From IMG/VR virus record IMGVR_UViG_3300045988_145635: a DNA stretch of 64,000 nucleotides. One strand, 5' to 3'. The notes under the pieces were generated by a model. That model saw only the letters and a list, made by a program, of their open reading frames with translations. It was not told where the DNA came from and made no database searches. The DNA is from a virus (Duplodnaviria; Heunggongvirae; Uroviricota; Caudoviricetes). The position numbers were made by a program, and so were the translations under genes. Below are positions 9,978 to 47,741 of this stretch, piece after piece; the first letter of the stretch is position 1, and every line of letters starts with the position of its first letter.

Positions 9978-9978
9978 T

Positions 9979-14302: not shown

Positions 14303-14324
14303 TTTGTTCTGGCGTCTGTAATTA

Positions 14325-15897: not shown

Positions 15898-16042
15898 GTA
15901 AGTGTTTACCTATCATTTTAAATCATGTATCTTATCGGCGTCAGGATGACAATGTGTCGGTAAGACACAGTTCCAGGATGGAACGAGAAAGGCGGCTGGC
16001 AATCGCCAGCCGCAACTCTTTCTGACACTGGATGGAGTCCAC

Positions 16043-26806: not shown

Positions 26807-27907
26807 TCACACTGCGCGGAATGCGATTTCGCCAGGTATTACTTCACCTTGCCAATACATTTGGGCAGCAACGCGATCTGCGAGGTCACGATAAATAGCC
26901 GTAAATTCGCTATCTGGACGACTAATAACGGTTGGTGTTCCGTTATCCAGATCTTCACGAAGAGAGATATGAAGTGGCATTTGGCCTAACAACTGCGTGT
27001 TGTATTTCTCGGCCAGTTTCTGTGCGCCACCGGTGCCAAAAATTGGCTCGTGATGACCGCAGTTACTGCAAATATGCACACTCATGTTTTCGACGATACC
27101 CAGTACCGGCACTTCGACTTTTTCGAACATCACAATGCCTTTCTTCGCATCGATCAGCGCGATGTCTTGCGGCGTAGTTACCACAACCGCACCAGTTACA
27201 GGAATGTTCTGCGCCAGCGTCAACTGAATATCACCAGTGCCCGGCGGCATATCGAGAACGAGATAGTCCAGATCAGGCCATAGAGTTTCCTGCAACATCT
27301 GCATCAGCGCCTTGCTGGCCATCGGTCCACGCCACACCATTGCATTGTCGTCGGTGACCAGATAACCAATAGAGTTGGTTGCCAGGCCATGAGACATGAT
27401 AGGTGCCATGTGAGTACCGTCCGGTGAGGTTGGACGTTGGTTTTCCGCGCCCAGCATGGTTGGAATTGATGGACCATAGATATCGGCATCCAAAATACCA
27501 ACTTTCGCACCTTCAGCAGCCAACGCCAGTGCCAGATTTACCGCCGTGGAGGATTTACCTACGCCGCCCTTGCCTGAGCTGACGGCGATAATGTTCTTAA
27601 CGCCATTAATGCCTGGTTGGTTTTTGACGCGCTTAAGCGTGGCAATGTTGTACGACAGCTTCCAGTCAATAGCCTTTGCGCCAGTGATACGGAGCAGATC
27701 ACCACTACATTGCTCTTTCAGGTCTTCAAAAGGCTTATTCCACACGAAAGGCATGATTAGTTCGACATGCAGTGTGTCATCCATCAACGCAACATGGTGT
27801 AACGCTTTAAGCGTAGTCAGGTTGTGTTTCAGGGTTGGGTGCTGAAAATTAGCCAGCGTACCGGCTACCATTGCTCTCAGGGCATCCGGCGATTTGGACT
27901 CGCTCAT
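26807..27907 (-). CDS. apbC: Fe-S cluster carrier ATPase Mrp/ApbC (host-type)
   Basis: 366-aa protein that matches recalled enterobacterial Mrp almost throughout (SGKGGVGKSSTAVNLALAL, CSNCGHHEPIFG); divergent from metG as in enterobacterial chromosomes. Confidence 0.95.
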   Translation of the reverse strand: MSESKSPDALRAMVAGTLANFQHPTLKHNLTTLKALHHVALMDDTLHVELIMPFVWNKPFEDLKEQCSGDLLRITGAKAIDWKLSYNIATLKRVKNQPGINGVKNIIAVSSGKGGVGKSSTAVNLALALAAEGAKVGILDADIYGPSIPTMLGAENQRPTSPDGTHMAPIMSHGLATNSIGYLVTDDNAMVWRGPMASKALMQMLQETLWPDLDYLVLDMPPGTGDIQLTLAQNIPVTGAVVVTTPQDIALIDAKKGIVMFEKVEVPVLGIVENMSVHICSNCGHHEPIFGTGGAQKLAEKYNTQLLGQMPLHISLREDLDNGTPTVISRPDSEFTAIYRDLADRVAAQMYWQGEVIPGEIAFRAV

Positions 27908-28064
27908 CCCGTCTCCTTTATTTTAATTTGCGCAATTGTCGCCTTGTAGTGTACTCCAGCTACGACATTTAATCATTTATGAGAAATGCTGTTATCACAT
28001 GGCAGACATAAGGCCATTTTGTTACTATCAAGCCCCTTTTCACTACAAAGAAGTAATGCCTACT

Positions 28065-30098
28065 ATGACCCAAGTCGCGAAGAAAATTCTGGTGACGTGC
28101 GCGCTGCCGTACGCTAACGGCTCAATCCACCTCGGCCATATGCTGGAGCACATCCAGGCTGATGTCTGGGTTCGTTACCAGCGAATGCGCGGCCACGAGG
28201 TTAATTTCATCTGTGCCGACGATGCCCACGGTACGCCGATCATGCTGAAAGCGCAGCAGCTTGGTATCACACCGGAGCAGATGATTGGCGAAATGAGTCA
28301 GGAACACCAGACTGATTTCGCAGGCTTTAACATCAGCTATGACAACTATCACTCGACGCACAGCGAAGAGAACCGTCAGTTGTCTGAGCTTATCTATACT
28401 CGCCTGAAAGAGAACGGTTTTATTAAAAACCGCACTATCTCTCAGTTGTACGACCCGGAAAAAGGCATGTTCCTGCCGGATCGTTTTGTAAAAGGCACCT
28501 GCCCGAAATGTAAAGCGCCAGATCAATACGGCGATAACTGTGAAGTCTGCGGCGCAACATATAGCCCGACTGAATTGATCGAGCCGAAATCGGTGGTTTC
28601 TGGCGCTACCCCGGTAATGCGTGATTCCGAACACTTCTTCTTTGATCTGCCTTCTTTCAGCGAAATGTTGCAGGCATGGACCCGCAGCGGCGCGTTGCAG
28701 GAGCAGGTGGCGAACAAAATGCAGGAATGGTTTGAATCCGGCCTGCAACAGTGGGATATCTCCCGCGATGCGCCTTACTTCGGTTTTGAAATTCCGGACG
28801 CGCCGGGCAAATATTTCTACGTCTGGCTGGACGCGCCGATTGGCTACATGGGTTCCTTCAAGAATCTGTGCGACAAGCGCGGCGATACCACCAGCTTCGA
28901 TGAATACTGGAAGAAAGACTCCACCGCCGAGCTGTACCACTTCATCGGTAAAGATATTGTTTACTTCCACAGCCTGTTCTGGCCTGCCATGCTGGAAGGC
29001 AGCAACTTCCGCAAGCCGACCAACCTGTTTGTTCACGGCTATGTGACAGTGAACGGCGCGAAGATGTCCAAGTCTCGCGGTACCTTTATTAAAGCCAGCA
29101 CCTGGCTGAATCATTTTGACGCCGACAGCCTGCGTTACTACTACACTGCGAAACTCTCTTCGCGCATTGATGATATCGATCTCAACCTGGAGGATTTCGT
29201 TCAGCGCGTGAATGCCGATATCGTGAACAAAGTGGTTAACCTGGCCTCCCGTAATGCAGGCTTTATCAACAAGCGTTTTGACGGCGTGCTGGCAAGCGAA
29301 CTGGCTGACCCGCAACTGTACAAAACCTTTACTGATGCCGCTGAAGTGATTGGCGAAGCATGGGAAAGCCGCGAATTTGGTAAAGCTATCCGTGAAATCA
29401 TGGCATTGGCTGACCTGGCTAACCGCTATGTCGATGAACAGGCTCCGTGGGTGGTGGCGAAGCAGGAAGGGCGCGATGCCGATCTGCAGGCGATTTGCTC
29501 TATGGGCATTAACCTGTTCCGCGTGCTGATGACGTACCTGAAACCGGTACTGCCGAAACTGACTGAACGTGCAGAAGCATTCCTGAATACAGAACTGACC
29601 TGGGATGGTATCCAGCAACCGCTGCTGGGCCATAAAGTGAATCCGTTCAAGGCACTGTATAACCGTATCGATATGAAACAGGTGGAAGCACTGGTGGAAG
29701 CATCCAAAGAAGAAGTGAAAGCCACAGCCGCACCGGTAACTGGCCCACTGGCTGACGACCCGATTCAGGAAACCATCACCTTTGACGACTTCGCCAAAGT
29801 TGACCTGCGTGTGGCGCTGATTGAAAACGCGGAGTTTGTTGAAGGCTCTGACAAACTGCTGCGTCTGACACTGGATCTCGGTGGGGAAAAGCGTAATGTC
29901 TTCTCAGGCATCCGTTCTGCTTATCCCGACCCACAGGCATTGATTGGTCGTCACACCATTATGGTGGCTAACCTGGCTCCGCGTAAAATGCGCTTCGGTA
30001 TCTCCGAAGGCATGGTGATGGCTGCTGGCCCCGGCGGGAAAGATATCTTCCTGTTAAGCCCGGATGCTGGTGCTAAACCTGGCCACCAGGTTAAGTAA
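28065..30098 (+). CDS. metG: methionine--tRNA ligase (host-type)
   Basis: 677-aa protein from [25 protein letters not shown] to the C-terminal tRNA-binding domain; essentially identical to recalled E. coli MetG with a handful of substitutions; HIGH and KMSKS motifs present. Confidence 0.97.
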
Positions 30099-34879: not shown

Positions 34880-35006
34880 AAATGACCATCCTGTTTCCCG
34901 CAGGCTAAAACACCAACCTCTTACCTCCAGGCAACCGACAAACCCACCTGTTCCCGTCCGGCTACCGCAACTTTCCACTTTGACGCCTTATTCGTACAAC
35001 GATAAT

Positions 35007-35036
35007 TAACACCAACAAGAAAACAATTTGTTATTT
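35007..35036 (+). promoter_or_regulatory. class A palindromic motif
   Basis: TTAACACCAACAAGAAAACAATTTGTTATTT about 20 nt upstream of ATG 35054. Confidence 0.5.
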
Positions 35037-35053
35037 ACGATAAGGAATTAATC

Positions 35054-35536
35054 ATGAATTTTATCGCTACTGTAAACGCACCCGCACATGGCAATATCGC
35101 TGTAACGTTCTCTGACATTGAAAAACGAGTACTTGGTGCATGGCGCGACAATGAGACGGTAGAACTGTCAGCACAAGAAAAATGCATTATTGCACGCGAC
35201 ATCATTGGCAATCGTCGTTACTCGCGGGTATTTGAGAAAGCGTATGTGGTAAATTCTGGATTCGGAACGTTCGTCTTTCCGGTGCGCTCCGGGCGATTCT
35301 GCCAGTCCAAGTTGATTGAGTTCGCTACGCAGATTTCTGTCTGGATTAAAACTCAATCGTCGTTCAAATTTTCCGACGATGAAGCAGTATCGCAGGGGAT
35401 GCGGATCGCCAACAATGCAATTAAATGCAAAAACATTACGTATACCGCTGGCGTTGATACATGGAAACTGTTTTGCGCTAACTTTATGCTGAATGTATAC
35501 GCAAGCAACCGCATCCACATCCTTGATGGCGTGTAA
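35054..35536 (+). CDS. hypothetical protein
   Basis: 160-aa ORF after a class A motif; followed by a terminator hairpin. Confidence 0.5.
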   Translation: MNFIATVNAPAHGNIAVTFSDIEKRVLGAWRDNETVELSAQEKCIIARDIIGNRRYSRVFEKAYVVNSGFGTFVFPVRSGRFCQSKLIEFATQISVWIKTQSSFKFSDDEAVSQGMRIANNAIKCKNITYTAGVDTWKLFCANFMLNVYASNRIHILDGV

Positions 35537-35544
35537 CTGAGAAG

Positions 35545-35568
35545 AGGGCCAGAAACGGCCCTTTCTCT
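35545..35568 (+). terminator. rho-independent terminator-like hairpin
   Basis: AGGGCC-AGAAAC-GGCCCT followed by TTCTCT. Confidence 0.5.
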
Positions 35569-35570
35569 AT

Positions 35571-35710
35571 AGCCACCAGCTGCCGCAGGGAAATTTTCAG
35601 AAACGGCAAGGAACGCATTCATGAGCCGACGGGAAACGGCCAGGATTTTTTCGGGAAACGGCTGCATTCGCCTTTGTGTAGAAAAAAACATCGGGAAGCT
35701 GGTGGAATCC
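35571..35710. repeat. GGGAAACGGC-type repeats enclosed by a 9-bp inverted repeat
   Basis: CCACCAGCT (35574-35582) and AGCTGGTGG (35697-35705) flank CAGGGAAATTTTCAGAAACGGC, CGGGAAACGGCC and CGGGAAACGGCTG units; same repeat family as 32400-32540. Confidence 0.55.
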
Positions 35711-36084
35711 AACCAGCGGTTGTCGGACAGGTGAGCGGGGAAAATTATGATGACTTTCGTCGCCTGAGACATCCAGATTTCTTTCGTAGCATAATCACAT
35801 ACGTGATTAAGTGGTGTGATTATGTGAAAAATCACGCGCACATAATACGCGAGCGGATACGGAACAAAACAAAATGCCGATCCGCGCCGACAAATAAACG
35901 CGGATCATAAAGCAAGACTAAAAGCCAATGATTAACCATACACCATAACGCAATATAACGCGTTTTAAGCGCGTTAATGCGCTAAGTAATGGGTATATAC
36001 TGGTAAGGATATAAAAGCTCGTCTGTGGCGTTATTTTGGCGCTTATTTTTATGTTGTTGGAGTGAGTCAAAGACAATAAAAAAA

Positions 36085-36148
36085 GCGCCATCATTGGCGC
36101 GTTATGGTGGAAGTATTGGAAACGAAAAAAGCGCCCATAGTGGGCGCT
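36085..36148. terminator. pair of bidirectional terminator hairpins closing the minus-strand island
   Basis: GCGCCA-TCAT-TGGCGC and AGCGCCCA-TAG-TGGGCGCT, both flanked by A-runs upstream and T-rich sequence downstream. Confidence 0.6.
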
Positions 36149-36153
36149 CGATT

Positions 36154-36390
36154 TTATTTATGTAAACTGATTTCAAATCCCATTTCTACAAACGCTTTTA
36201 ACATTAAAAATATATCAGCGTCATTCACGTCTGCTTTTTTTCGCTCCTGGTCGCTCAATAAGTCAATTTTGCGCGTCGTTTCATCTATAAGCTCGACTGC
36301 GCGCCCAGCGTAACCAGCGATCCCAGCGATGCGATTAACATAATATTCGTTATGGACGTTAACGCCAGCGATAAGAACAAACATGATCAA
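36154..36390 (-). CDS. hypothetical protein
   Basis: 78-aa ORF, last gene of the minus-strand array. Confidence 0.35.
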   Translation of the reverse strand: MIMFVLIAGVNVHNEYYVNRIAGIAGYAGRAVELIDETTRKIDLLSDQERKKADVNDADIFLMLKAFVEMGFEISLHK

Positions 36391-36404
36391 GCTCCTTAAA
36401 AAAA

Positions 36405-36608
36405 TTAAATAGAATTTTGAAGTTTTCCGATTAATGCGCTTAAACGTAAGTATTCACGTTTGCGCTTGCAATCTCGCTTGCTGTTAAGCAAATCAGAAAA
36501 CGTAAAATTTAATTGGTCGCGTTGCGCGATCAAATCATCGATTAATTCCAGTTTATAAGCGCGATACTTTGCGCGATATTCCGCGCGGATCTTGTCATAG
36601 CTGACCAT
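36405..36608 (-). CDS. hypothetical protein
   Basis: 67-aa basic ORF; AAGGAG site between the upstream hairpin and the ATG. Confidence 0.4.
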   Translation of the reverse strand: MVSYDKIRAEYRAKYRAYKLELIDDLIAQRDQLNFTFSDLLNSKRDCKRKREYLRLSALIGKLQNSI

Positions 36609-36624
36609 TTTAAAGCTCCTTTAA

Positions 36625-36643
36625 AGCGCCCATAGTGGGCGCT
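36625..36643. repeat. second copy of the perfect hairpin AGCGCCCATAGTGGGCGCT
   Basis: Identical 19-nt hairpin to 36130-36148, here placed between two minus-strand genes directly upstream of a ribosome-binding site. Confidence 0.6.
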
Positions 36644-36655
36644 TGATTCCATTAA

Positions 36656-37306
36656 TTACGCTTTGAAAGCATCAGCTAGATAATTGTAGAAATCATTCTT
36701 GATAAAGCGATATTGCTGCGTACCAGCTTTCGCGCTCCCAGCTCCTTTGACTTTTTCAACAAGTCCAAGACGTTCGCAAAGATTGATCAACTGGTTGGCT
36801 TGAGTATAGCCAGCGTCCAATTTAATCTCGCACGCTTTTTTCGCTTCATTCATTAAATCGAAAACAGCGCCATTGGTGAACGTGTCGATCTCGTCGTTAA
36901 TCATATCGATTAAAGCGAATACACGAGATCCTGACATATCAGCGACGGAATAAACACATTTACCAGCTTTAATGGATTTAACCAGATAAACCAGTTTTTC
37001 CAGTGAATAACTATTAGTCATTGCATCACGGAAAAATACTTCTGGCGCTTGTTTACTTGCTTTGATCGCATAGTAGAAAACAGAGCATAATTTTTCGTCT
37101 TCTACTGCGTTTACGACGTTGTTGATGAAGTAAGCAAGTTTAGTGGTAGCAGCTTGCATATTTGCTTTGTCTGCTTTGGTGTGCGTACCATTTTTATAAT
37201 GTTCATTATATGTTTGAGTTGCCAGATCTGCTTTTTCGCGCAGCTCGTCGGATACAATGGATGCAGCTTCAATGATGGATTTTTTAGAAATGATAATGTT
37301 AGCCAT
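36656..37306 (-). CDS. hypothetical protein
   Basis: 216-aa ORF in the AT-rich minus-strand island. Confidence 0.5.
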   Translation of the reverse strand: MANIIISKKSIIEAASIVSDELREKADLATQTYNEHYKNGTHTKADKANMQAATTKLAYFINNVVNAVEDEKLCSVFYYAIKASKQAPEVFFRDAMTNSYSLEKLVYLVKSIKAGKCVYSVADMSGSRVFALIDMINDEIDTFTNGAVFDLMNEAKKACEIKLDAGYTQANQLINLCERLGLVEKVKGAGSAKAGTQQYRFIKNDFYNYLADAFKA

Positions 37307-37587
37307 GATTTCAATCCTTAGTATAAAATTTAATTGTCGTTAGCGATTTCGCTTTCGATGAGTCCAATTATCGATATGAGAAAAAAGATTGCAAGCGTTT
37401 TTTAATTTTTTTTTGCAGGGCGAAAGTCCTAGAAATAAATACGAGATCGTCGAAGGTGTTCCCTAAATAAATAATCGATTCCGGCTTTAGACCTTATATA
37501 TTTATACGGGGTAGAATTGAAAGAGTATAAAATGAATGGCGTGTAAAATAATAACCGGACTTAGCCGGTTATTACCCTTATAGGAAT

Positions 37588-37887
37588 TTACATCTTTTTT
37601 GCATAGTTCCTGATTTCTTTTATTATATATTCCTGAAAACGCTCCGAGTTTTCGCATTTGTCTTTTGAAGACTCATCAAGTCCCAACTTGCATCCCGCAA
37701 CGATCAGTCCATCTTGATATGCAGCGCCTAAAGCCATGCTTAGGTCTAACATGCACAAATCGTAGTCTTCCGCCTTTGAACACAACTCTGTAGAGACACG
37801 TTGCACTCGTTCAATGCTATTTTCTTGAGAAAATGCGGAAGAGCTAAAAATGAAAGTTAAGAATGTGAATGCTGCTACAGTTTTCAT
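37588..37887 (-). CDS. small secreted Cys-containing protein (paralogue A)
   Basis: N-terminal signal peptide MKTVAAFTFLTFIFSSSAFS; four cysteines with spacing similar to the paralogue at 37963-38259. Confidence 0.5.
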   Translation of the reverse strand: MKTVAAFTFLTFIFSSSAFSQENSIERVQRVSTELCSKAEDYDLCMLDLSMALGAAYQDGLIVAGCKLGLDESSKDKCENSERFQEYIIKEIRNYAKKM

Positions 37888-37903
37888 ATCAATATCCTAA
37901 AAC

Positions 37904-37955
37904 GGTAAAATTCGGTCAACCAAATCGAAGAAAACAAGAATTTTTCTGCCGTCTT
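37904..37955. repeat. 52-bp direct repeat, copy 1 (second copy at 38270-38321)
   Basis: GGTAAAATTCGGTCAACCAAATCGAAGAAAACAAGAATTTTTCTGCCGTCTT, about 94% identical to the copy that encodes the C-terminus of the 38263-38826 ORF. Confidence 0.8.
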
Positions 37956-37962
37956 CATACAT

Positions 37963-38259
37963 TTATCGGACTGACTCTACAGCCTTACGATTGGTGTCAA
38001 AAAGCGCATCAACGAACAGCAATGAAGAGTTGTTCAATTCACATGGTTCATAATTTTCCACCTGTTCACATAGTTGAGCGGTCTTACCTATGTTTATCCC
38101 TAGTTTTACTGCTGCTGAAAGTTGAAACATGCAAACTGGAATATTCTGAGACGTTGAGCATACGTCATGCATCAGCGACTTAATAATTGCAATATCATCC
38201 TTTGCATTGGCTGAAATTGAGTAAACTAAAAATAATGATGTCAATAGTATCGATTTCAT
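37963..38259 (-). CDS. small secreted Cys-containing protein (paralogue B)
   Basis: Signal peptide MKSILLTSLFLVYSISANA; four cysteines. Confidence 0.5.
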   Translation of the reverse strand: MKSILLTSLFLVYSISANAKDDIAIIKSLMHDVCSTSQNIPVCMFQLSAAVKLGINIGKTAQLCEQVENYEPCELNNSSLLFVDALFDTNRKAVESVR

Positions 38260-38262
38260 AAC

Positions 38263-38826
38263 TCAAAAAGGTAAAATTCGTTCAACCCAATCGAAGAAAA
38301 CAAGAATTTTTCTGCCGTCTTTCAACTTAAGTGTGACTAGGCAGGCATCAACGCCATCTGACGTTCCCTCAATTTCGCGGCCGTCTGCCATGTAGACCCT
38401 TATAGATTGGCCGTTTTGATAAGCCTTGCGACATATCTTAAAAAAATCACGACGTGATGGCTGGTTGTCTACATAGTCAGGGTGTATTGTTAGTCTCCCT
38501 TTGAAATCGTAATCAATGCCATCAATTACGCCTGATTCAATTGTGCTAATGCGCTCAAGTGGGAGCCTTATACGATTTTCTTTGTCAAATGGAGTTGGAC
38601 AAAGGTCAACTTTGTTACGAGATGACATGAGACCATAAACGTACATGCAAAACACTTGGCCGTCTTCGAGAGTGACTCTTACAGGAAATTTAGCCCTCCG
38701 CCAGAAGAGCAAGGTGCGTTCAGCATGTTCGTAGTCTCGCGGCCATACTTCAGCCGGTATGCCGTAGGTGATATCTTTCGTCGTCATATCATTATAAAGT
38801 GGTTGGCAATATGTCCATTGTACCAT
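38263..38826 (-). CDS. hypothetical protein
   Basis: 187-aa ORF; alternative start at ATG 38787 would avoid overlap with the lipoprotein gene; its last 19 codons lie in the 52-bp repeat. Confidence 0.45.
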   Translation of the reverse strand: MVQWTYCQPLYNDMTTKDITYGIPAEVWPRDYEHAERTLLFWRRAKFPVRVTLEDGQVFCMYVYGLMSSRNKVDLCPTPFDKENRIRLPLERISTIESGVIDGIDYDFKGRLTIHPDYVDNQPSRRDFFKICRKAYQNGQSIRVYMADGREIEGTSDGVDACLVTLKLKDGRKILVFFDWVERILPF

Positions 38827-39211
38827 CCCAGGTAGTGAAAACCCGATATGTTTTCGAATCGCCCTGCTTTAGCTTTATTTCTCGTTCCATCCTGGAGGGG
38901 TTAAATGCGCAAAGACCTGAACTTTCAATTGATGTCCCAACGATCCACTCTCCTTCGTTAAGGTAGAAAGTTGCTTTTTCACCAGGTTCTAGCTTTGCAG
39001 CCGTTTCTCCATTGATGAAAATGGAAGCGTTACATGCAGAACCAACCAGCCCTTTGTCTCGAACTATTGTTAGACTAGACTCATGTGGTGTTTGATATTT
39101 AAATATTCTGCTTTGAGGTGCATCCTTTGCCTTTGAAATAGATATAGACGAAGACGAACACCCAATTAGTGACGTGGTTAGCATTAGAATCATTAAGTTT
39201 TTTGCTTTCAT
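38792..39211 (-). CDS. putative lipoprotein
   Basis: MKAKNLMILMLTTSLIGCSSSS: signal peptide with LIGC lipobox; 139 aa. Confidence 0.6.
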   Translation of the reverse strand: MKAKNLMILMLTTSLIGCSSSSISISKAKDAPQSRIFKYQTPHESSLTIVRDKGLVGSACNASIFINGETAAKLEPGEKATFYLNEGEWIVGTSIESSGLCAFNPSRMEREIKLKQGDSKTYRVFTTWDGTMDILPTTL

Positions 39212-39238
39212 ATTTGATTGACTATGATTAGTGAGTGG

Positions 39239-39787
39239 CTACATGCTATTCTGAGTTCTGTTGTAAATATCTTTTAAGAGGTCATCTCTTTTTATGTTTT
39301 TACAGACTTTGTCGAAACTTAATTCACCTGATGATATGCAGTTGTTGTATTTTTCGATAAAATTTTTTAATGCCAGATGATTTTTGAAAAGAAAAGAAAA
39401 ACCATAGGGTGACGTGCTATCTCTTATCCATTTCCGAGCACTGGGATAAGTGTATAAATTTGAATGCAACTCCAATTTTCCAGGGGCCACGCCATCACAG
39501 GAGTCCATAATAGCGAACATTTTTGATATATCAAAAGGATAAAAGACTACTCCGCAATTTGTCCTGGTGCCTTCAATATCTTTCACGTATATATAGTGTT
39601 CATAACGATCTTTACGTGAAGTCTTTAACCTGTATTGTATTAGTTTGTGCTCTTCTTTTTGAGAAGAAGTTAGGTGTCTAGGGTTTTCTAAGCAAGATTT
39701 CTGTTTATTTTTTTTATGATAAAAATCCACACAGTCCTTTATTTCCTTTGCACTTAAAAATCTCTTATCAAAAGGTAAGTGACCCAT
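39239..39787 (-). CDS. hypothetical protein
   Basis: GGAGG site 5 nt before the ATG; 182 aa; AT-rich codon usage. Confidence 0.5.
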   Translation of the reverse strand: MGHLPFDKRFLSAKEIKDCVDFYHKKNKQKSCLENPRHLTSSQKEEHKLIQYRLKTSRKDRYEHYIYVKDIEGTRTNCGVVFYPFDISKMFAIMDSCDGVAPGKLELHSNLYTYPSARKWIRDSTSPYGFSFLFKNHLALKNFIEKYNNCISSGELSFDKVCKNIKRDDLLKDIYNRTQNSM

Positions 39788-39927
39788 TCATGCCTCCGGT
39801 TCTAAACATAGGTAAGCCTACAAATATCGTTCAGCCAATCAAGATCTTTTTTCAGCCGGAGGTATATGTTTCAAAAAACGTGACGAATGTCACATGCAGG
39901 TGCTCTCATACACCTGCATGTAGACTA

Positions 39928-40494
39928 TTAATCATTCAATAATCTATATTTTCTTTTGATTAAATCTTCACCTTTTTTGGTGAACACAAAACCAAATTGC
40001 GATTTTTTGTTCAGCCTAAGGACTCTGTTATCCAACGCATCGGTTGATGGAATCAATGTTTGATCATCTATCCAATTTAGTAGCGTAAGAAAGTTCAGCA
40101 GCCTCAACGTTGTTGTGCGAAGCTCTTTCGATATATTTTCAATGCTGGCAATTCGTCTTTCTTTTTTCTCAGGTGGTACAGATAATTGTTCTTGAGGTTT
40201 CGTGGATAGATAATCAATTTCGTTTGCAGCATCGAATGATATATGTGGCGTAATTTTGCTAAAAAAGCCTTTCGCTGACTCACTTGATAATAAACCAGAC
40301 CTATTCATATCGTTTGTTATTCTGTACAGGAGTGGACTGTGTTTCATTTCAGGATAACGTTGATAAAAGTTAAGCAATTCAAAAGCAGCATTAGCGCCAA
40401 CAAGAAAATCAGAAGGATCGCTGACTTTCCAGAAAGAATGATTTTTCTTAGCGCCAGTGGTGTCAACAAATGATAATTCTTTTAACCAACTCAT
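39928..40494 (-). CDS. hypothetical protein
   Basis: ORF-track start 40527 trimmed to ATG 40494, which follows an AAGGAG site at 6-nt spacing. Confidence 0.5.
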   Translation of the reverse strand: MSWLKELSFVDTTGAKKNHSFWKVSDPSDFLVGANAAFELLNFYQRYPEMKHSPLLYRITNDMNRSGLLSSESAKGFFSKITPHISFDAANEIDYLSTKPQEQLSVPPEKKERRIASIENISKELRTTTLRLLNFLTLLNWIDDQTLIPSTDALDNRVLRLNKKSQFGFVFTKKGEDLIKRKYRLLND

Positions 40495-40559
40495 GATGTG
40501 CTCCTTTCTAACAAGTGAGCACATCATAGAATTAGTAGATAGGGGGTAAATATGAAATG

Positions 40560-40838
40560 TTACGGCAACCTGCTCAGTATTTCCTCTAAATCTTTTTTTG
40601 TCATATTGGAGTTTTCATAGATGCGCATGATTTTCTCACGCGTCTTAGCGGAAACCCCAACAGCAGATGTGACTTTGTCAAATTCAGCCATAGTCATCGT
40701 CTCCAGAATGGCATTGATAACTTCAGCCTTAGACATCTTAATTTTTTTCTCTTTGAGTTTTATTTGAAATTTTCCAAGTTTTTCATTGGCCTTATCAGAC
40801 AATGCCACTTGGCAATAAGTTGTTTTTTTTTCGCTCAT
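40560..40838 (-). CDS. hypothetical small protein
   Basis: 92-aa Lys-rich ORF immediately downstream of the helicase gene. Confidence 0.45.
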   Translation of the reverse strand: MSEKKTTYCQVALSDKANEKLGKFQIKLKEKKIKMSKAEVINAILETMTMAEFDKVTSAVGVSAKTREKIMRIYENSNMTKKDLEEILSRLP

Positions 40839-40840
40839 AA

Positions 40841-42400
40841 CTAATCTCGTTTCAGAATTCCAAAATCGAATGCGCCATCAATAGGCAATACACCTTCCGC
40901 AAAGCCAGGTGTGGTGTCGATGATGTGTTTTCGCTCATAAGAGTGAGACAACAGGTATTTGTTGCTAGTGTCAATGAAATCAGTGATAAAACACACGTTT
41001 GCCTGATTCTTCTTGGCTCGTAAGCCACGACCGACACGCTGTCTCATTTCAACTTCTGCTTTCCCACCACCAGCAAGAATGACCGCACCAACGCTTGGCA
41101 CATCAACACCAACATCCAGAATAGTCGAGCCTATTAAAACATCTATTTCACCAGACGCTAAACTGTTCAGCTTTGCTTGCCTTGTCGACTGGTTCGATTC
41201 CCCATAAATGAAGTCAACTCTAAGGCCGGACTCTTTCATCATTTCCATCAGGATTTGCCCGTGGCGTTTAAGACGAACCAGAGTCATACAATTGAGAGAA
41301 TGTTGCTTATAGAGCAATGCTTCGCGAACAATGGCCTCATTACGTCCCAAATTATACACGATCCCCAACTGATAAGCCTTTTGGTAGGCAGTGCTCATAC
41401 CTACTCTAAAATTGAGGTGTTTGTTGGCAAGTTCTGCCTTGATTCTGGCCTCGTCCGGCTTGTAGGCAACTTTATGATAAAGGAAGTATGGTTTTGCCAG
41501 AATGCCTCGATCAATCAGGTACTTTTCTGTGACTTTAATTTCAATTCGCCCGGCCACAGCCATCAGACGCATGTTGGCTTCTGTAGAATCCTTCATGAAC
41601 GGCGTGGCCGTAAGCGCCAGACGATAGTCTGCGTTCACACATAATCTGGCAATGTCATAGAAATTAGAGCCTGAAGACTCATGCGCTTCTTCCAGAATAA
41701 GCAGAGACACACTTGAAAGGAAGCGTTTCACTAGCTCCCGACGTTTGAGGTGGTAGCTCTTTTTATCTGGTGTTGCATCGCGTGGTGGTTCTTCAAGGAA
41801 ACTTGCCAGAGTTTGAACTGTAGCGACGTTGATATGTCGTGATACCTGGAACTCACCCGAGCCAATGACTCCAACCTTTTGGCCCTTTAACCACGGTTCG
41901 CCATTTTCGGCGCGGTAGTCGATGGATCTCTGGAAGTTTTCGGCCATTTGAAACATCAGAACAGAGCGGGTTGTTAAAAATAATGTCATTCGACCGATAC
42001 GTGCAGCTGCTTTGCAGGCAACATTAGATTTCCCGCCACCAGTAGCGATCTGCGCAATCATCATTCCCTCTCGAACCAGTGTTTCCACAGTCTGATCCTG
42101 ATACGCATAATCAGGATTGTATGGGAATGGGTTAACCGCCGGATTTGGTTTTCCAAGCGCCGGGGCTTTGTCTTTGCGGATATGAACACATTTGATGCCC
42201 GCCTTGTTCAAGTTCGCCGCTACAGGCTTGGCAAAGCCAGCAGGGAACGAGTTTTTACTCCAGTTGAACATCGTGCTTGTGCCCTTCCAGTCGCCAGTCT
42301 CGACTTCGTAGCTCAACATCTGTTGCACCAGTTGCTTTACCTTGTCATCTGCGCCAGAAATAAGCGCATTAACTGCGTTAGATACAATCCGAACAGTCAT
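40841..42400 (-). CDS. superfamily 2 helicase
   Basis: Motif I ATGGGKS, motif II LILEEAH (DEAH-type), motif III LTATP, motif VI QRVGRGLR; AAGAGG ribosome-binding site. Confidence 0.8.
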   Translation of the reverse strand: MTVRIVSNAVNALISGADDKVKQLVQQMLSYEVETGDWKGTSTMFNWSKNSFPAGFAKPVAANLNKAGIKCVHIRKDKAPALGKPNPAVNPFPYNPDYAYQDQTVETLVREGMMIAQIATGGGKSNVACKAAARIGRMTLFLTTRSVLMFQMAENFQRSIDYRAENGEPWLKGQKVGVIGSGEFQVSRHINVATVQTLASFLEEPPRDATPDKKSYHLKRRELVKRFLSSVSLLILEEAHESSGSNFYDIARLCVNADYRLALTATPFMKDSTEANMRLMAVAGRIEIKVTEKYLIDRGILAKPYFLYHKVAYKPDEARIKAELANKHLNFRVGMSTAYQKAYQLGIVYNLGRNEAIVREALLYKQHSLNCMTLVRLKRHGQILMEMMKESGLRVDFIYGESNQSTRQAKLNSLASGEIDVLIGSTILDVGVDVPSVGAVILAGGGKAEVEMRQRVGRGLRAKKNQANVCFITDFIDTSNKYLLSHSYERKHIIDTTPGFAEGVLPIDGAFDFGILKRD

Positions 42401-42445
42401 AAACCTCTTTCCTTAGTGCCTTTTGTATGTTATTTGGCTATTATA

Positions 42446-42466
42446 ATAAGTAAGTGATTACTTAGT
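42446..42466. promoter_or_regulatory. class B palindrome (AATAAGTAAGTGATTACTTAG) in a divergent promoter region
   Basis: Sits in the 65-bp gap between the divergently transcribed helicase and ParB-like genes. Confidence 0.45.
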
Positions 42467-42482
42467 GGATTGTAGCAATAAA

Positions 42483-43163
42483 ATGGATGTAAAAATCACG
42501 ATTTTGCAGGTTGATGTTGCCAACCTTCGCCCGAATACCTGGAACACCAATTCGGTTGGTGCGCAGAATTTTGAAAAACTGAAAGGTTCTATCGAAAAAT
42601 TGGGCTTTTTTAAGCCAATTTTGGCTCGTGAACTTGAAGATGGATTTTTTGAAATCCTCGGCGGCGAACATCGCTGGCGTGCCGCTATTGAGCAAGGAAT
42701 TTCAACGGTTCCAGTGCTTTCTGTGGGCAAAATTAGCGATGTCGTAGCTAAACAGATGTCACTGGTGGACAACGAGCGATACGGTGAAGACGACCAAATC
42801 GCATTGCAACGCTTCATTGAAGAAATTCAGTCAGAACTTGACTATCAACTGTCTGAAATCGCCCCGTATGACGACGAAATCTCGATGGTTTTAGCAAAAG
42901 AGGCGGCAATCGACCTTGAAGCACTGGAGGCGTTGTCTCGTGGTAGTGATGGGCCTGTCGATACCGACAAACGAGAGAAAACCGAACGTGTGGGGGCGGA
43001 ACATCAGACCATGCGCTTCAAAGTAACTTTCGATGCGTCAGATCGTGTTGCAGAAACCATAAAAAACATCATCAAAGAGCAGGCTATTAACACCGGTAAT
43101 GAAATGGAGAACGCTGGTGAGGCTCTGGTGTGGCTGGTCGACTACTACAAGGAGCGTATGTAA
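42483..43163 (+). CDS. ParB-like nuclease domain protein
   Basis: ILGGEHRWRAA motif of the ParB/sulfiredoxin fold; ORF-track start 42465 is GTG, ATG 42483 preferred. Confidence 0.65.
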   Translation: MDVKITILQVDVANLRPNTWNTNSVGAQNFEKLKGSIEKLGFFKPILARELEDGFFEILGGEHRWRAAIEQGISTVPVLSVGKISDVVAKQMSLVDNERYGEDDQIALQRFIEEIQSELDYQLSEIAPYDDEISMVLAKEAAIDLEALEALSRGSDGPVDTDKREKTERVGAEHQTMRFKVTFDASDRVAETIKNIIKEQAINTGNEMENAGEALVWLVDYYKERM

Positions 43164-43831
43164 TGACCAAAAAGTTTGAAATCGTATATCGCGACCCGGC
43201 AGATCTTATTCCCTATGAGATGAATGCCAAAAAGCATGATGAACAGCAGATCCGAGATCTGGCCGCAGCCATTAAAAAGCGCGGATTTGACCAGCCAATT
43301 ACGGTCGATAAGAACGACGTAATTATTACTGGCCACGGCCGCCGTGAGGCTGCAATTTTTGCTGGACTTGAGCGCGTGCCGGTTATTGTTCGCGATGATC
43401 TGAGTGATGACGAGGTACGTGCAAAGCGCCTTGAAGATAACCGACTTGCCAGCATTGATTACGATGCAATTAAGCTACAGAAAGAGCTTGAGTCGCTTGT
43501 TCTGGACGATATCGAGGTTTTCGGCTTCGAAGAGCGTGAGTTGAATGTTCTCGTTGGCAGTATGACAGAAGAAATGGACACCGACTCGCTAGTTATCGAT
43601 CTTGGCGAAGAAACTAAACGACAGAAGGATGAACACACCGAGATCAGTCGTGAAGTTGCAGCGGAAGAAGTACGTGTTGTCGACGTATTGGGCTTTAAAA
43701 CGCTCCCTGCTGGCTCTGCCATTGTTGTTGGTGATTTGCTTGCCCATATGGAAGAAATGACGGGAGAAAGCGGGGTAGACGCATTTGTGGCATATGCGGA
43801 GAAGATCTCTTCCGGGGAGATGGCTGCATGA
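43163..43831 (+). CDS. ParB-like nuclease domain protein (second copy)
   Basis: ITGHGRREAA motif; start set to the ATG overlapping the upstream stop (TAATG). Confidence 0.65.
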   Translation: MTKKFEIVYRDPADLIPYEMNAKKHDEQQIRDLAAAIKKRGFDQPITVDKNDVIITGHGRREAAIFAGLERVPVIVRDDLSDDEVRAKRLEDNRLASIDYDAIKLQKELESLVLDDIEVFGFEERELNVLVGSMTEEMDTDSLVIDLGEETKRQKDEHTEISREVAAEEVRVVDVLGFKTLPAGSAIVVGDLLAHMEEMTGESGVDAFVAYAEKISSGEMAA

Positions 43832-44493
43832 GCAAATACATCATCAACGTATCGTTTCAGACACGCGTAAATAAAACCACGCGCACGTTGGAAATCGCTG
43901 AGTCGTTCGGGCTTGGCCTGGACGAAAAAGAGTGGACGCTTTACGACAATCTGGAGCTGGAAGTGAAGCAGGGCGATGTGGTGTACATCACCGGCCAATC
44001 CGGTTCCGGCAAATCCGTTGTGCTGCGCGAGTTGCAACGACAGATGAAGGATGAAGGGCTGTCTGTAGCCTCCATCGATGATTTTACCTTCGATAATGAG
44101 GTTAACGTCATCGATCAGTTGGGCAAAACGACCAGCGATGCGCTTGGGTTGTTATCTATGGCTGGTCTGAACGATGCATATCTGTTTGTTCGCAAGCCTT
44201 CTGAAATGTCAGACGGCCAGAAATATCGTCTCAAGATTGCCAAACTGATTGAGTCAGGCGCTAAAGTGTGGGCTGCTGACGAGTTCGGCGCTGTTCTCGA
44301 CCGTGTAACCGCTCAGGTTGTGGCGTCTAACCTCCAGCGTGCCGCTCGAAAGGTTGGTGCGACGGTAATGGTGGCGACGACTCACGAAGACCTGAAGAAC
44401 GCGCTGCGCCCGGATATGCAGATCACCAAGCACTACAAAGAACGCGTGAAGGTGGAATATCACAATGGTAGTCATGATGAGGTTCATTTATGA
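43828..44493 (+). CDS. ABC-type ATPase-like protein (nucleotide-binding domain only)
   Basis: Walker A GQSGSGKS, signature-like SDGQKYRL, Walker B VWAADEFG, H-loop ATTHE; no transmembrane domain. Confidence 0.6.
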   Translation: MSKYIINVSFQTRVNKTTRTLEIAESFGLGLDEKEWTLYDNLELEVKQGDVVYITGQSGSGKSVVLRELQRQMKDEGLSVASIDDFTFDNEVNVIDQLGKTTSDALGLLSMAGLNDAYLFVRKPSEMSDGQKYRLKIAKLIESGAKVWAADEFGAVLDRVTAQVVASNLQRAARKVGATVMVATTHEDLKNALRPDMQITKHYKERVKVEYHNGSHDEVHL

Positions 44494-45380
44494 CGGACAT
44501 CATCATTAAACGCTACCGCCCTGAAGAGTTTCCGCGTCATCTGGATTTTCTGGAGCGAATGACTGTCACAAAGGGAACTGTAGAGGACTGGCACGCTCTT
44601 AAGTCGCTTCACTACAAAACAGACGGCAAACCTTTCGCGCCAACTTACTATCGCTGCGAACTTGATGACCGTCTGGTGGGCGTCGTGGTTATGGCTTACC
44701 CGAAACTACTGTTGGCACCTCGCCACCGCATGTTTCCTAAGTTGAAACCAACCACTAATACCACCGTGGCTAACCAGTACTGGGGTCGGTACGTGAATAA
44801 CAACTTTGCGGTGATCAGTCGCTCAGTTGTGGATACTCAGTATCGTGGCGTAGGCGTCTCTTATCGAATGATTAACCTGGTTAGCAGGATGCATGACCGG
44901 CCAATCATTGAGATCCAGTCCTCGATGAGCAAATACAATCCCTTCGCCATGAAAGCAGGGTTTAAGTTCATCCGCCCTGAGCGACCGAAGAGCTATGAAA
45001 GTGCACTGCGTGTATTCCAGCGCCATTTCCGTTCCGACCCGGGTGATAACGAGGCGATCGTCAAAGAGTTGTTCGCAATGAGCGAGTCTCGTCGTCGCCG
45101 TGCACTGCGTGATCTGGTGGCGGACTACCACAAGAACAGTTCCCTGGCAAAAGCTGGGCGGAATCGTGGCACGACGATTCAGGACATTGCCGACAGTCTG
45201 GTGGACGAGGCCAGCATTGTGAAGCTGCTCAAGGACATTCACAACCTGAGCTTTACGTCTCCGTTGTATGGTGTGTACCGAAACCCTGACTTTGGTCGTC
45301 GACTGCCTGACACGCTGCCACTGCTGGCATTCGACAAACAACCTTTGGATAAACCGTTAGAAATTGCTTTACCGGCATAA
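44490..45380 (+). CDS. hypothetical protein (possible GNAT-like fold)
   Basis: 296-aa ORF; QYRGVGVSYRMI segment resembles GNAT motif A; tentative. Confidence 0.4.
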   Translation: MTDIIIKRYRPEEFPRHLDFLERMTVTKGTVEDWHALKSLHYKTDGKPFAPTYYRCELDDRLVGVVVMAYPKLLLAPRHRMFPKLKPTTNTTVANQYWGRYVNNNFAVISRSVVDTQYRGVGVSYRMINLVSRMHDRPIIEIQSSMSKYNPFAMKAGFKFIRPERPKSYESALRVFQRHFRSDPGDNEAIVKELFAMSESRRRRALRDLVADYHKNSSLAKAGRNRGTTIQDIADSLVDEASIVKLLKDIHNLSFTSPLYGVYRNPDFGRRLPDTLPLLAFDKQPLDKPLEIALPA

Positions 45381-45852: not shown

Positions 45853-46485
45853 ATGACGGTCGAAAAAGACGAGGTAAAAACTCGCCTGACACCAGCGGAG
45901 TGGGCCGAAGCTGAAGCCAAATGGACGTCAGGCGAATATACACTCTCAAAGCTGGAGGAAGAGTACGGCATTCGTCGTGAAACACTCTCCAGACATTTCA
46001 AAAAGCGAGGATTAGAGAAAGGCGCGGACTCTGTTGGGAAGATGGTTCGTGAGTCTCTTAAATCTGACGCAGAGCTTCGCGCTAAAGCCCGTGCGGAAAA
46101 GATAGAAGAACGTCGTACACGTTATGACGGCTGGGCGTATGCGTTGGGGCAGATGGTGATGGTCGAAGTCACTACGGCCAAACGTGAGGGTAAGCCTTTA
46201 GGGGCGATTGAGGATTCTCTCAAGAGCTTACAGAGAGCCAGTAATACCCTTGCAAAATGCTTTGAAGTTTCGTCCAAAGCATTGGGCATGGATCATGCGG
46301 AAAATGACGAGGAAGAAATTCCGAACCTGGTATTTGGTGAGCTTACGCCTTCCCAGGTGGCGAAATTACGTCAGGAAGACGACGAGCCTGAAATCATCGA
46401 TGACGAATTGCTTGAGACGTTGGAAGAAGAAGCTCTAAGCGAATTTGATGCGACAGATGATGGAAGTGAAGGGGAGGACGAATAA
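45853..46485 (+). CDS. putative terminase small subunit
   Basis: Position immediately upstream of the large terminase; N-terminal helix-turn-helix-like region; acidic C-terminus. Confidence 0.55.
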   Translation: MTVEKDEVKTRLTPAEWAEAEAKWTSGEYTLSKLEEEYGIRRETLSRHFKKRGLEKGADSVGKMVRESLKSDAELRAKARAEKIEERRTRYDGWAYALGQMVMVEVTTAKREGKPLGAIEDSLKSLQRASNTLAKCFEVSSKALGMDHAENDEEEIPNLVFGELTPSQVAKLRQEDDEPEIIDDELLETLEEEALSEFDATDDGSEGEDE

Positions 46486-47741
46486 TGGCAATCCCGTCCT
46501 CGCTCAGTCTTGTGCAACTGCATTCTGGACAGATGAAAGTCTTCCAGTCTCCGCATCGATTTAAAGTTGTTTGTGCTGGTCGACGCTGGGGAAAATCCCG
46601 GTTGTCGATCTCCACTATTATTCGTGCGGCGGCAAAGGAAAAAAAGCAAAGGGTCTGGTATGTCGCTCCTACTTACCAGATGGCTCGTCAGATTTTGTGG
46701 GACGATCTACAGGAAGTTCTGCCCCGTAAGTGGGTTAGGAAAAAGAACGACACCACGATGACAATCGTGTTGAAGAACGGTTCGGAGATCGCCCTCAAAG
46801 GTGCTGATAAACCTGACACTCTGCGCGGCGTAGCGTTGCATTTTGTAGTGCTTGATGAATTTCAGGATATGAAGGCTGACACCTGGTACAAGGTGTTACG
46901 ACCTACTCTTTCATCGACACGCGGCGGTGCACTGATCATTGGTACGCCAAAAGGCTTCTCGGAATTTCACAAACTGTGGACTATAGGCCAGAACGTAGAG
47001 CTGCAAAGAAAGGGACAGTGGAAGAGCTGGCAGTTTGTAACTGCTGATTCGCCGTTTGTGCCTACGGCGGAAATTGAAGCTGCTAAGAACGATATGGACC
47101 CTAAATCGTTCGCTCAGGAGTACCTGGCCAGCTTTGAAAATATGTCCGGGCGCGTTTACTACCCGTTCGATCGAAACGTGCATGTTAAACCGCTTCAGTT
47201 CAACCCTCGGTTGCCTATATGGGTAGGACAGGACTTCAACATTGACCCGATGTCTTCCGTAATTTTGCAACCTCAGCCAAATGGTGAGCTATGGGCAATT
47301 GATGAATTGGTGCTCTTTTCCTCTAACACGGCAGAGGTTTGTGATGAGCTTGAGAGACGCTTCTGGCGCTGGAAATCACAGATAACGGTATTTCCAGATC
47401 CGGCAGGTGCTTATCGCCAACATGCTCGCGGGGAGTCTGACGTCGACATATTCAAAGAGAAGGGATTCTTACGTGTCGATTATTCGAAAAAGCACCCGCC
47501 AATTGCGGATCGTGTTAATGCTGTTAACCGAATGCTGATGACCGCATCTGGAGATATCCGGCTGTATATCGATCCGAAGTGCAAGCATTTGATTGATTCA
47601 TTGGAAAAAGTCATCTACAAGCCTGGAACACGAGATATGGATAAGACAGGTGGCATTGAGCATAGTGCAGACGCATTGGGCTATCCAGTACATCGTAGGT
47701 ATCCAGTCAAAAACCGTGTTATTCTTGGTGGCTCTCGATAG
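46485..47741 (+). CDS. terminase large subunit
   Basis: Walker A VCAGRRWGKS and Walker B FVVLDEFQ in the N-terminal ATPase domain; C-terminal nuclease-sized domain. Confidence 0.85.
   Translation: MAIPSSLSLVQLHSGQMKVFQSPHRFKVVCAGRRWGKSRLSISTIIRAAAKEKKQRVWYVAPTYQMARQILWDDLQEVLPRKWVRKKNDTTMTIVLKNGSEIALKGADKPDTLRGVALHFVVLDEFQDMKADTWYKVLRPTLSSTRGGALIIGTPKGFSEFHKLWTIGQNVELQRKGQWKSWQFVTADSPFVPTAEIEAAKNDMDPKSFAQEYLASFENMSGRVYYPFDRNVHVKPLQFNPRLPIWVGQDFNIDPMSSVILQPQPNGELWAIDELVLFSSNTAEVCDELERRFWRWKSQITVFPDPAGAYRQHARGESDVDIFKEKGFLRVDYSKKHPPIADRVNAVNRMLMTASGDIRLYIDPKCKHLIDSLEKVIYKPGTRDMDKTGGIEHSADALGYPVHRRYPVKNRVILGGSR

Follow-up and report, generated by a model that had tools for sequence, protein, structure and literature searches.

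A conserved leftward gene block with exchangeable cassettes and an orphan FljA homolog in an SSU5-like phage-plasmid of Escherichia coli

Results and Discussion

Layout of the Leftward Gene Block

This report concerns a stretch of 64,000 nucleotides from a Caudoviricetes record (IMG/VR IMGVR_UViG_3300045988_145635), referred to in full as the window. By its sequence, the window is an SSU5-like phage-plasmid of Escherichia coli, and the subject here is a block of 11 consecutive open reading frames (ORFs) on its minus strand, at 36154-42400. Nearly all other large ORFs of the window lie on the plus strand, with apbC at 26807-27907 as an exception. An earlier note, made from the letters alone, had described eleven minus-strand genes running against a plus-strand genome, which the ORF map confirmed, and had taken them for acquired cargo and possibly a helicase-led defense module. 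Our results suggest that the block is probably the conserved leftward operon region of the SSU5/pHCM2/pMT1 family of phage-plasmids, built as a two-layer mosaic of scaffold and cassettes. Its genes (g1 to g11) and sites are as follows.

42401-42482: 82-bp divergent intergenic region between the helicase and a ParB-like gene
40841-42400, minus strand: g1, 519 amino acids (aa), superfamily 2 (SF2) DNA helicase
40560-40838, minus strand: g2, 92 aa, 2 nucleotides (nt) past the helicase stop
39928-40494 (or to 40527), minus strand: g3, 188 aa (or 199 aa), variable cassette of slot 1
39239-39787, minus strand: g4, 182 aa, variable cassette of slot 1
38792-39211, minus strand: g5, 139 aa, predicted lipoprotein
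38263-38787, minus strand: g6, 174 aa, FljA family; a longer 187-aa ORF starts at 38826
37963-38259, minus strand: g7, 98 aa, predicted secreted protein with four cysteines, variable cassette of slot 2
37892-37955, minus strand: repeat of the 3' end of g6, between g7 and g8
37588-37887, minus strand: g8, 99 aa, predicted secreted protein with four cysteines, variable cassette of slot 2
36656-37306, minus strand: g9, 216 aa, core protein
36625-36649, directly after g9: internal copy of a terminator hairpin, AGCGCCCATAGTGGGCGCT (direct repeat D2, inverted repeat I1)
36405-36608, minus strand: g10, 67 aa, terminal cassette
36154-36390, minus strand: g11, 78 aa, probably 76 aa from an ATG at 36384, terminal cassette
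36129-36149: bidirectional intrinsic-terminator-like hairpin that closes the block, with scan matches on both strands

With the helicase left out, the block (36154-40838) has a G+C (GC) content of 38.2%, while the remaining sequence has 46.9%; no other 4.7 kb of the window is as poor in GC. The helicase gene has the composition of the backbone (46.9%, z -0.1), so the description of an AT-rich island holds for the block without its first gene. The most deviant genes are g3 and g4, with a GC content at third codon positions (GC3) of 31-33%; g3 has 35.6% GC and a GC3 of 31% (z -3.0), and g4, at 33.5%, has the lowest GC of the block.

The bidirectional terminator proposed at 36.1 kb was borne out, since the hairpin at 36129-36149 is G+C-rich, carries T-runs on either side and was matched on both strands; more terminator-like sites lie at 36027-36100. 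At 42.4 kb, where a divergent promoter region had been proposed, no site passed the promoter scan of 42401-42482, but the palindromic TATTATAATA at 42439-42448 gives a TATAAT hexamer on each strand, and divergent promoters are therefore plausible there and no more. Within the block, the consensus scan returned a promoter-like site (40550-40523) and a terminator-like hairpin (39895-39878) round g3, a promoter-like site (37919-37891) and a hairpin near 37572-37550 round g8, and a promoter-like site (37394-37367) ahead of g9. These sites suggest that the block consists of several transcription units and not of a single operon. An Rfam scan of 35000-43500 at a permissive threshold found nothing credible.

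Conservation of the Block in the SSU5 Family

The region is 95-98.5% identical in DNA to the E. coli phage-plasmids and phages CMS-2020a, PhiR41_1, Cyrano, and pSTEC388_1, the closest public record being pSTEC388_1 (98.5% identity over 96% of the region), while Salmonella phage SSU5 is about 80% identical. In PLSDB, 787 plasmids match part of the region, from Klebsiella (312), Escherichia (229), Enterobacter (92), Yersinia (62), Salmonella (49), and other genera. A supergroup of phage-plasmids around SSU5, with S. Typhi pHCM2 and Y. pestis pMT1 among its members, has been described (Pfeifer et al., 2021; PMC7969092). The window shares with SSU5, pHCM2, and pMT1 both its backbone and the gene order round the locus, and belongs to this supergroup. 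Its flanks are those of the relatives, with ParB-like, ABC-ATPase, and terminase genes beside the same leftward block; the window ORFs at 46485-47741 and downstream match the terminase gene annotated in relatives by coordinates only. The relatives are typed as IncFIB or rep_cluster_488, and no gene for plasmid replication was identified within the 64 kb.

Conservation was assessed with a tblastn matrix over 19 related loci, among them SSU5, pHCM2, pMT1, and Klebsiella and Enterobacter plasmids. Three genes (g1, g6, and g9) were present in all 19 loci and g2 in 18, followed by g5 (13), g11 (10), g10 (9), g3 (7), g7 (5), g4 (4-5), and g8 (3). The shared layout reads helicase, 92-aa protein, variable segment, lipoprotein, FljA-like protein, second variable segment, 216-aa protein, and 67- or 78-aa protein. 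It keeps its order, orientation and position in SSU5, S. Typhi pHCM2, and Y. pestis pMT, and recurs in plasmids of Klebsiella, Enterobacter, Kluyvera, Buttiauxella, E. coli, and E. albertii, where the block faces away from a pair of ParB-like genes, an ABC-type ATPase gene, and the terminase operon. Even a remote Klebsiella element (L017), whose helicase is 72% identical, retains the series helicase, small gene, FljA-like gene (38%), small gene, and g9 (48%).

The helicase is 90-99% identical in amino acids in the other 18 loci. Identities range over 52-100% for g2 across its 18 loci, 32-99% for g5, and 46-100% for g7 over the loci that carry them; some of the seven loci matching g3 do so at just 40-43%, and g8 is 89-91% identical in Klebsiella elements. 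Compared with the counterparts in SSU5 (SSU5_119-124), pHCM2, and pMT1/pMT, which stand in the same position, orientation and order beside the ParB-like pair and terminase operon, identity is 92-93% for the helicase, 84-85% for g9, 75-77% for g6, 57-58% for g2, and 55-59% for g5. Median pairwise ratios of nonsynonymous to synonymous substitution rates (dN/dS) were 0.018 for g1, 0.068 for g2, 0.081 for g9, 0.110 for g6, and 0.123 for g5, which indicates purifying selection.

The picture of horizontally acquired cargo thus divides. The composition of the block is deviant, as expected of a genomic island, but that of the helicase is not, and g1, g2, g6, and g9 are not missing from close relatives at the same site; they form a syntenic core (18-19 of the 19 loci, dN/dS 0.02-0.11). 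The earlier note had itself named conserved genes with orthologs in the same position as evidence against its view, and this is largely what was found for these four. Variable cassettes, for which the description stands, are g3, g4, g7, g8 and in part g5, g10, and g11, of which only g3, g4, g7, and g8 are sporadic. There are no tRNA genes in the window, no integrase was noticed at the block borders in the public annotations of relatives, although no search was aimed at integrases, and the direct repeats flank single cassettes and not the entire block.

Cassettes at Fixed Slots and Their Stacking

Comparison with the relatives marks g3, g4, g7, and g8, and to some extent g5, g10, and g11, as variable, AT-rich cassettes, each kept to a fixed slot. 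Relative to SSU5, pHCM2, and pMT, the window element adds g3 and g4 in slot 1, holds both g7 and g8 in slot 2 and both terminal cassettes g10 and g11, and has duplicated junction sequences. The repeats account for this. The direct repeat D1 (37892-37955 and 38258-38321; 64 nt, 91% identity) corresponds to the last approximately 19 codons of g6, and its two copies flank g7. Since relatives have either g6 next to g7 or g6 next to g8, the two genes appear to have been stacked by recombination through the common g6 end. Similarly, a 34-nt repeat that includes the terminator hairpin follows g9 and again follows g11, bracketing g10 and g11, which also have a ribosome-binding region in common (repeat D7); many relatives carry only one of these two genes and a few carry both. 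The 64- and 34-nt direct repeats show, at the level of sequence, alternative cassettes stacked in tandem. Because g7 and g8 as well as g10 and g11 are stacked and slot 1 is filled, the block counts 11 genes here and 6 in SSU5.

Several cassette proteins are predicted to reach the cell envelope. The lipoprotein with an LIGC lipobox that had been noticed earlier is g5: it carries MKAKNLMILMLTTSLIGC, with Ser at +2, which fits the pattern [LVI][ASTVI][GAS]C, and it matches phrog_890 "lipoprotein" at E 8e-51, with DUF2846 below threshold (E 0.04). We regard g5 as a semi-conserved, fast-evolving predicted lipoprotein. Both g7 (phrog_9536) and g8 (phrog_27673) have signal-peptide-like N-termini, that of g7 ending in ANA, and four cysteines each, in line with the earlier description; the paralogy that had been read into them is weak (27% identity over 60 aa, E 2e-5). 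A likeness of g7 and g8 to lysozyme inhibitors of the DUF1311/LprI type, seen by eye in the cysteine spacing, was backed by no search and was dropped.

The terminal cassettes g10 and g11 belong to phrog_6145 and phrog_1585. Homologs of g10 (SSU5_119 and PHROG members) carry the label "MIT family metal ion transporter (CorA)". With 67 aa, g10 is far too short for this label, and it has no Pfam family at E<=0.01 (DUF6899 is sub-threshold at E 0.023), so the label is likely a propagated mis-annotation. For g2, g3, g5, g7, g8, g10, and g11, no Pfam, NCBIfam or PADLOC family was found and the PHROG families were of unknown function or "lipoprotein" only; relaxing Pfam to E values up to 10 gave sub-threshold noise for the small proteins.

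The cassettes look like moron-like accessory content that includes predicted envelope-targeted proteins. As with phage morons, they are small AT-rich genes in fixed slots of a temperate element; g3 and g8 have a predicted promoter and terminator of their own, and some of the proteins have a lipobox or signal peptide. Among prophage envelope proteins, the lipoproteins Cor and Llp block receptors. Pfam and PADLOC gave no match here. As to superinfection exclusion or defense by the cassettes, the single lead is the McrA-like HNH domain of a g4 relative found in the same slot.

The Scaffold Proteins g1, g2, and g9

The first gene of the block encodes an SF2 helicase. Its motifs I, II, III, and VI read GGGKS (at 121), EEAH (at 237), TATP (at 264), and QRVGRGLR (at 454), giving the Walker A motif, a DExH-type motif II, motif III and the arginine finger of motif VI in two RecA-like domains; the superfamily proposed earlier is confirmed, but motif II reads EEAH and not DEAH. 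Pfam matched DEAD, ResIII, and Helicase_C at E about 1e-14, and phrog_16 "DNA helicase" was matched at E 2e-93. Among solved structures, archaeal XPB (E 5e-13) and T4 UvsW (E 3e-8) come closest. All SF2 motifs of XPB/Rad25 and UvsW are shared by g1, but the likeness is distant and confined to the helicase core, and the first approximately 95 residues of g1 match nothing. From its conservation, g1 is a core gene of the SSU5 family, and by analogy it probably serves replication or recombination of the phage-plasmid.

Its partner g2 belongs to phrog_1466 and is without a Pfam family; a by-eye likeness to ribbon-helix-helix proteins is not claimed. The 216-aa protein g9 is predicted to consist of an N-terminal helical hairpin and a C-terminal winged-helix-like domain. 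The model has a predicted local distance difference test score (pLDDT) of 72, and of 60-70 in the C-terminal domain. Winged-helix matches were obtained for it, the reference being the helix-strand-helix-helix-strand-wing-strand topology of solved winged helix-turn-helix regulators, and g9 is read as a probable DNA-binding regulator with a winged-helix-like domain.

We interpret the synteny, conservation pattern, repeats, FljA family membership, and predicted folds, all of them results of this analysis, in the following way. Transcription of the block would run away from the ParB-like/terminase/structural operon. The first layer would be an old syntenic scaffold for nucleic-acid handling, made up of the helicase g1, the 92-aa g2, the FljA-like g6, and the probable winged-helix protein g9. 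The second would consist of AT-rich exchangeable cassettes in fixed slots, with g3, g4, and g5 in slot 1 (g2 to g6), g7 and g8 in slot 2 (g6 to g9), and g10 or g11 in a terminal slot. Recombination between related elements would swap the cassettes, and the envelope cassettes may act as conversion- or exclusion-type morons.

g6 Is an Orphan Member of the FljA Family

One of the six proteins earlier listed as lacking recognizable motifs is g6, and for it the listing did not hold. It matched Pfam PF03614 (FljA, "repressor of phase-1 flagellin") at E 4e-80, with 268 bits against a cut-off of 24 and over positions 1-170 of the 170-position profile. Passing the gathering threshold across the full profile, g6 is a member of the FljA family. 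Its homologs are 172-176 aa long, so the true start is taken to be Met14 of the 187-aa ORF. The protein is 35% identical to, and collinear with, the FljA encoded straight downstream of flagellin on a linear Salmonella plasmid (L012). The resulting length of 174 aa is that of the FljA proteins of Salmonella fljBA, pBSSB1 fljA z66, and E. coli flk-type loci, and the signature stretches DI(T/S)YG..AE.WPR(D/E)Y, R(R/K)DFF.IC, and FDWV.RI are kept. Unlike the flagellin-linked loci, g6 has no adjacent flagellin gene or invertase and lies inside a phage-plasmid operon; a flagellin gene is absent from the block and from all 19 related loci, and the arrangement is thus not of the fljB-fljA type.

In plasmids, g6 was found 835 times, including 345 Klebsiella and 62 Yersinia plasmids, and 826 of the matches cover at least 80% of the protein. 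Among phages it was found in SSU5-type elements only. A back-translated pattern search for FljA loci was too specific, returning five loci, all of the phage-plasmid type, and missing the chromosomal Salmonella fljA.

No solved structure has sequence likeness to g6. An AlphaFold2 model built with 15 homologs (pLDDT 75.8, predicted template modeling score 0.74) shows two tandem units, each of one helix and five strands, in the arrangement of the Sm/Hfq fold, where an N-terminal helix leads into an antiparallel sheet of five strongly bent strands. The C-terminal half of g6 also aligned to the Hfq Sm1 motif with a z of 6.2. The model differs from Hfq and Sm/LSm proteins in placing two Sm-like domains in one chain, compared with a homohexameric ring, and sequence identity is 15-25%. 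There was no Pfam Sm or Hfq match for g6, and Foldseek against viral structures returned single small-barrel domains only, with no full-length analog. The tandem Sm-like model fits direct RNA binding, and g6 is predicted to be an orphan FljA-family translational repressor with a tandem Sm/Hfq-like RNA-binding fold, encoded by a core gene. None of the literature results listed linked FljA with the Sm or Hfq fold, and neither a solved structure nor a published fold assignment for the FljA family was found.

Characterized FljA proteins repress fliC expression post-transcriptionally (PMC2652032). Motile E. coli loses its motility when it carries a pBSSB1 derivative in which fljB is disrupted but fljA(z66) is intact (PMC2652032). 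By analogy with these proteins, which act in this way on fliC mRNA, we infer that g6 would bind the leaders of mRNAs and prevent their translation, and it may lower flagellin in a flagellated E. coli host. K. pneumoniae and Y. pestis are not known to make flagella. Because g6 is universal in the family, is under purifying selection and also occurs in presumed non-flagellated hosts, its selected target is suggested to be, at least in part, a phage, plasmid or other non-flagellin transcript. We consider it somewhat likelier that the element itself encodes the target, at least in part, than that host fliC is the main one, and both can hold. Our tentative reading, which we rate as possible and short of probable, is that g6 is a phage-encoded tandem-Sm regulator acting as a core post-transcriptional switch in the life cycle of the phage-plasmid, with a target that is not, or not only, flagellin mRNA; the FljA of Salmonella would then be a domesticated relative, or the reverse. 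The same switch might also turn flagellin off on lysogeny in flagellated hosts.

The alternative is lysogenic conversion, in which g6 would mainly silence translation of host flagellin and, together with the lipoprotein and the secreted four-cysteine proteins, remodel the cell surface. The cell could gain by a lower flagellar cost, by less exposure to Toll-like receptor 5 (TLR5) and antibodies, and by protection from flagellotropic or other superinfecting phages. Full-length membership in a family whose characterized proteins all repress fliC, collinearity with a flagellin-linked FljA, and the action in trans across genera of an orphaned plasmid FljA (PMC2652032) speak for it. So do a flagellated host, E. 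coli, and the predicted envelope targeting of g5, g7, and g8. Against this, g6 is kept mostly at full length in the Klebsiella and Yersinia plasmids, and it is a fixed core gene amid DNA- and RNA-handling genes and not a sporadic moron. Between Klebsiella-borne copies its dN/dS is about 0.1-0.16, values based on few substitutions. At only 35% identity to flagellin-linked FljA, its RNA specificity may differ. When the window was searched for sequence that copies or imitates the promoter and 5' leader of fliC from E. coli K-12, as a possible FljA target on the phage, only chance matches of 9-12 nt appeared, and nothing in the literature searched links SSU5-type elements with fljA, flagellin or a motility phenotype. 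We consider lysogenic conversion of this kind possible but less likely than not, and host fliC as the main selected target of g6 is doubtful to the same degree.

Several points weigh against the scaffold-and-cassette reading and against a non-flagellin target of g6. If the elements often switch hosts, this alone could account for the conservation of g6 where hosts have no flagella, and the few substitutions behind the within-Klebsiella ratios limit what they can say about selection there. The g6 and g9 models are of medium confidence (pLDDT 76 and 72), and both the Sm and the winged-helix fold, being small and widespread, draw many matches. The role of g1 in replication or recombination is taken solely from family resemblance, and the promoters and terminators are consensus matches, with none at 42.4 kb. 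The 19 loci were selected for diversity and not sampled at random, and the literature search found no paper on the gene block.

The sequence is essentially already public, mostly annotated as hypothetical, and the architecture is that of a known, very common phage-plasmid family. Four points were not found in the literature searched: that the SSU5 family has an orphan FljA homolog among its core genes, the fold predicted for FljA, the repeats left by cassette stacking, and the HNH-bearing relative of g4. Clinical E. coli, Klebsiella, Enterobacter, and Salmonella commonly carry phage-plasmids of the SSU5 type, among which are the pMT1 and pHCM2 backbones. The map of fixed and exchangeable genes shows where new cargo enters, the tandem Sm fold offers a structural hypothesis for RNA binding by the FljA family, and the orphan homolog can be tested for flagellin silencing or for regulation of the element. 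Should g6 indeed silence flagellin, major pathogens that carry these very common elements would be changed in motility, H-antigen expression, and TLR5 signaling. The main value of the block lies in the FljA question and not in the island or defense idea.

Slot 1 and the Question of Defense

Of the slot 1 cassettes, g3 belongs to phrog_13473, and an exhaustive HMMER search found just three clusters of the g4 family, an ORFan family, among 1.84 billion representative proteins. One g4 homolog (P0192, 348 aa) has an extra C-terminal HNH domain (Pfam HNH, 23.2 bits against a cut-off of 21.4), whose best match in the Protein Data Bank is E. coli McrA (E 0.013) and whose PADLOC match is mREase_IV (E 0.002), both weak. 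It lies in the same slot 1 of the related loci L023-L025 (6001-7047), following a g3-like gene. The nuclease domain is not present in g4 of the window, and with only three clusters we draw no family-level conclusion past the HNH fusion. The two-part layout of P0192 resembles McrA-type type IV restriction endonucleases, which join an N-terminal reader domain to a C-terminal HNH domain, but its N-terminal domain has no detectable likeness to the McrA reader. P0192 may be an endonuclease of either the type IV restriction or the homing type.

A defense or anti-defense role could be considered for slot 1 only, with g3 and g4, and possibly g5, forming a cassette related to McrA-like type IV restriction, of which the reader domain would survive as g4. 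This would fit the recurrence of g3-like and g4-like genes together in L018 and L023-L025, the HNH fusion with its best matches to McrA and mREase_IV, and the most extreme AT content of the block in a segment with promoter-like and terminator-like sites of its own. It is nevertheless improbable. The HNH domain is matched weakly (E 0.002-0.013), the nuclease is missing from g4 and from two of the three clusters of its family, neither g3 nor g4 matched any defense model, and a homing endonuclease would explain the fusion just as well.

For the block as a unit, the idea of a horizontally acquired, helicase-led defense or counter-defense island is largely refuted and very unlikely: it drew on the AT-rich composition, the strand opposite to the neighbors, the many unknown proteins, the weak PADLOC-DB v2 matches of the helicase (PbeA at E 1e-22, type IV restriction, DpdF, and others) and the McrA-like HNH of the g4 relative in the same slot, but those PADLOC matches are to the generic helicase core without a matched partner protein, the helicase is native in composition, fixed in position and the most conserved gene, and so does not lead a defense operon, g2, g6, and g9 are equally fixed, g4 of the window has no nuclease domain, the window has no tRNA gene, and no integrase was noticed at the borders, although no search was aimed at integrases. 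PADLOC-DB v2 gave nothing for the other ten proteins of the block beyond one chance-level match (E 0.007), and no known defense system was detected by PADLOC among the eleven proteins and the slot 1 proteins of a relative.

Other relatives fill slot 1 differently. In three Klebsiella loci (L006, L019, and L020) it holds a lipoprotein homolog 32-33% identical to g5 on the opposite strand, and in Cyrano and in E. albertii and Enterobacter elements it holds a different plus-strand gene of approximately 266 aa, labeled "membrane lipoprotein" in Cyrano. Slot 1 seems to favor envelope proteins.

Neighboring Genes and Related Records

Outside the block, the following genes of the window were identified.

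42483-45380, across the divergent gap from the helicase: two tandem ParB-like (ParB_N) genes, an ABC-type ATPase, and a 296-aa protein
26807-27907, minus strand: apbC/mrp, 366 aa, Pfam ParA/NUBPL at E 2e-102
within 26807-30098, divergent from apbC: metG, full-length methionyl-tRNA synthetase, 720 aa, E 5e-166
19188-20873, plus strand: 561-aa protein with a DUF4942 domain (E 1e-20)
15250-15897, plus strand: RNase H
8847-9977, plus strand: thymidylate synthase
4191-6506 and 6614-7756, plus strand: ribonucleotide reductase large and small subunits
874-2790, plus strand: SbcC/SMC-like ATPase

The set of the ParB-like pair, the ATPase, and the 296-aa protein, the last publicly labeled as an ABC ATPase or acetyltransferase fusion, is kept upstream of the terminase in all relatives. 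SSU5-type sequences with a helicase 93% identical to g1 are also filed under a "Bacillota bacterium" metagenome-assembled genome (L011, JAEWTL010000044.1), Gemella morbillorum, and Finegoldia magna (L011, P0078, P0182); these records are probably binning or contamination errors and not true hosts. On the plus strand, 874-16000 holds a set of genes for nucleotide metabolism and DNA repair. The apbC-metG pair consists of host-type housekeeping genes inside a phage-plasmid, with a GC content of 51-52%, above that of the backbone. The two genes are neighbors and divergent on the E. coli chromosome as well. The pair was found in 211 plasmids at 95-99% identity, nearly all of them from Escherichia or Shigella.

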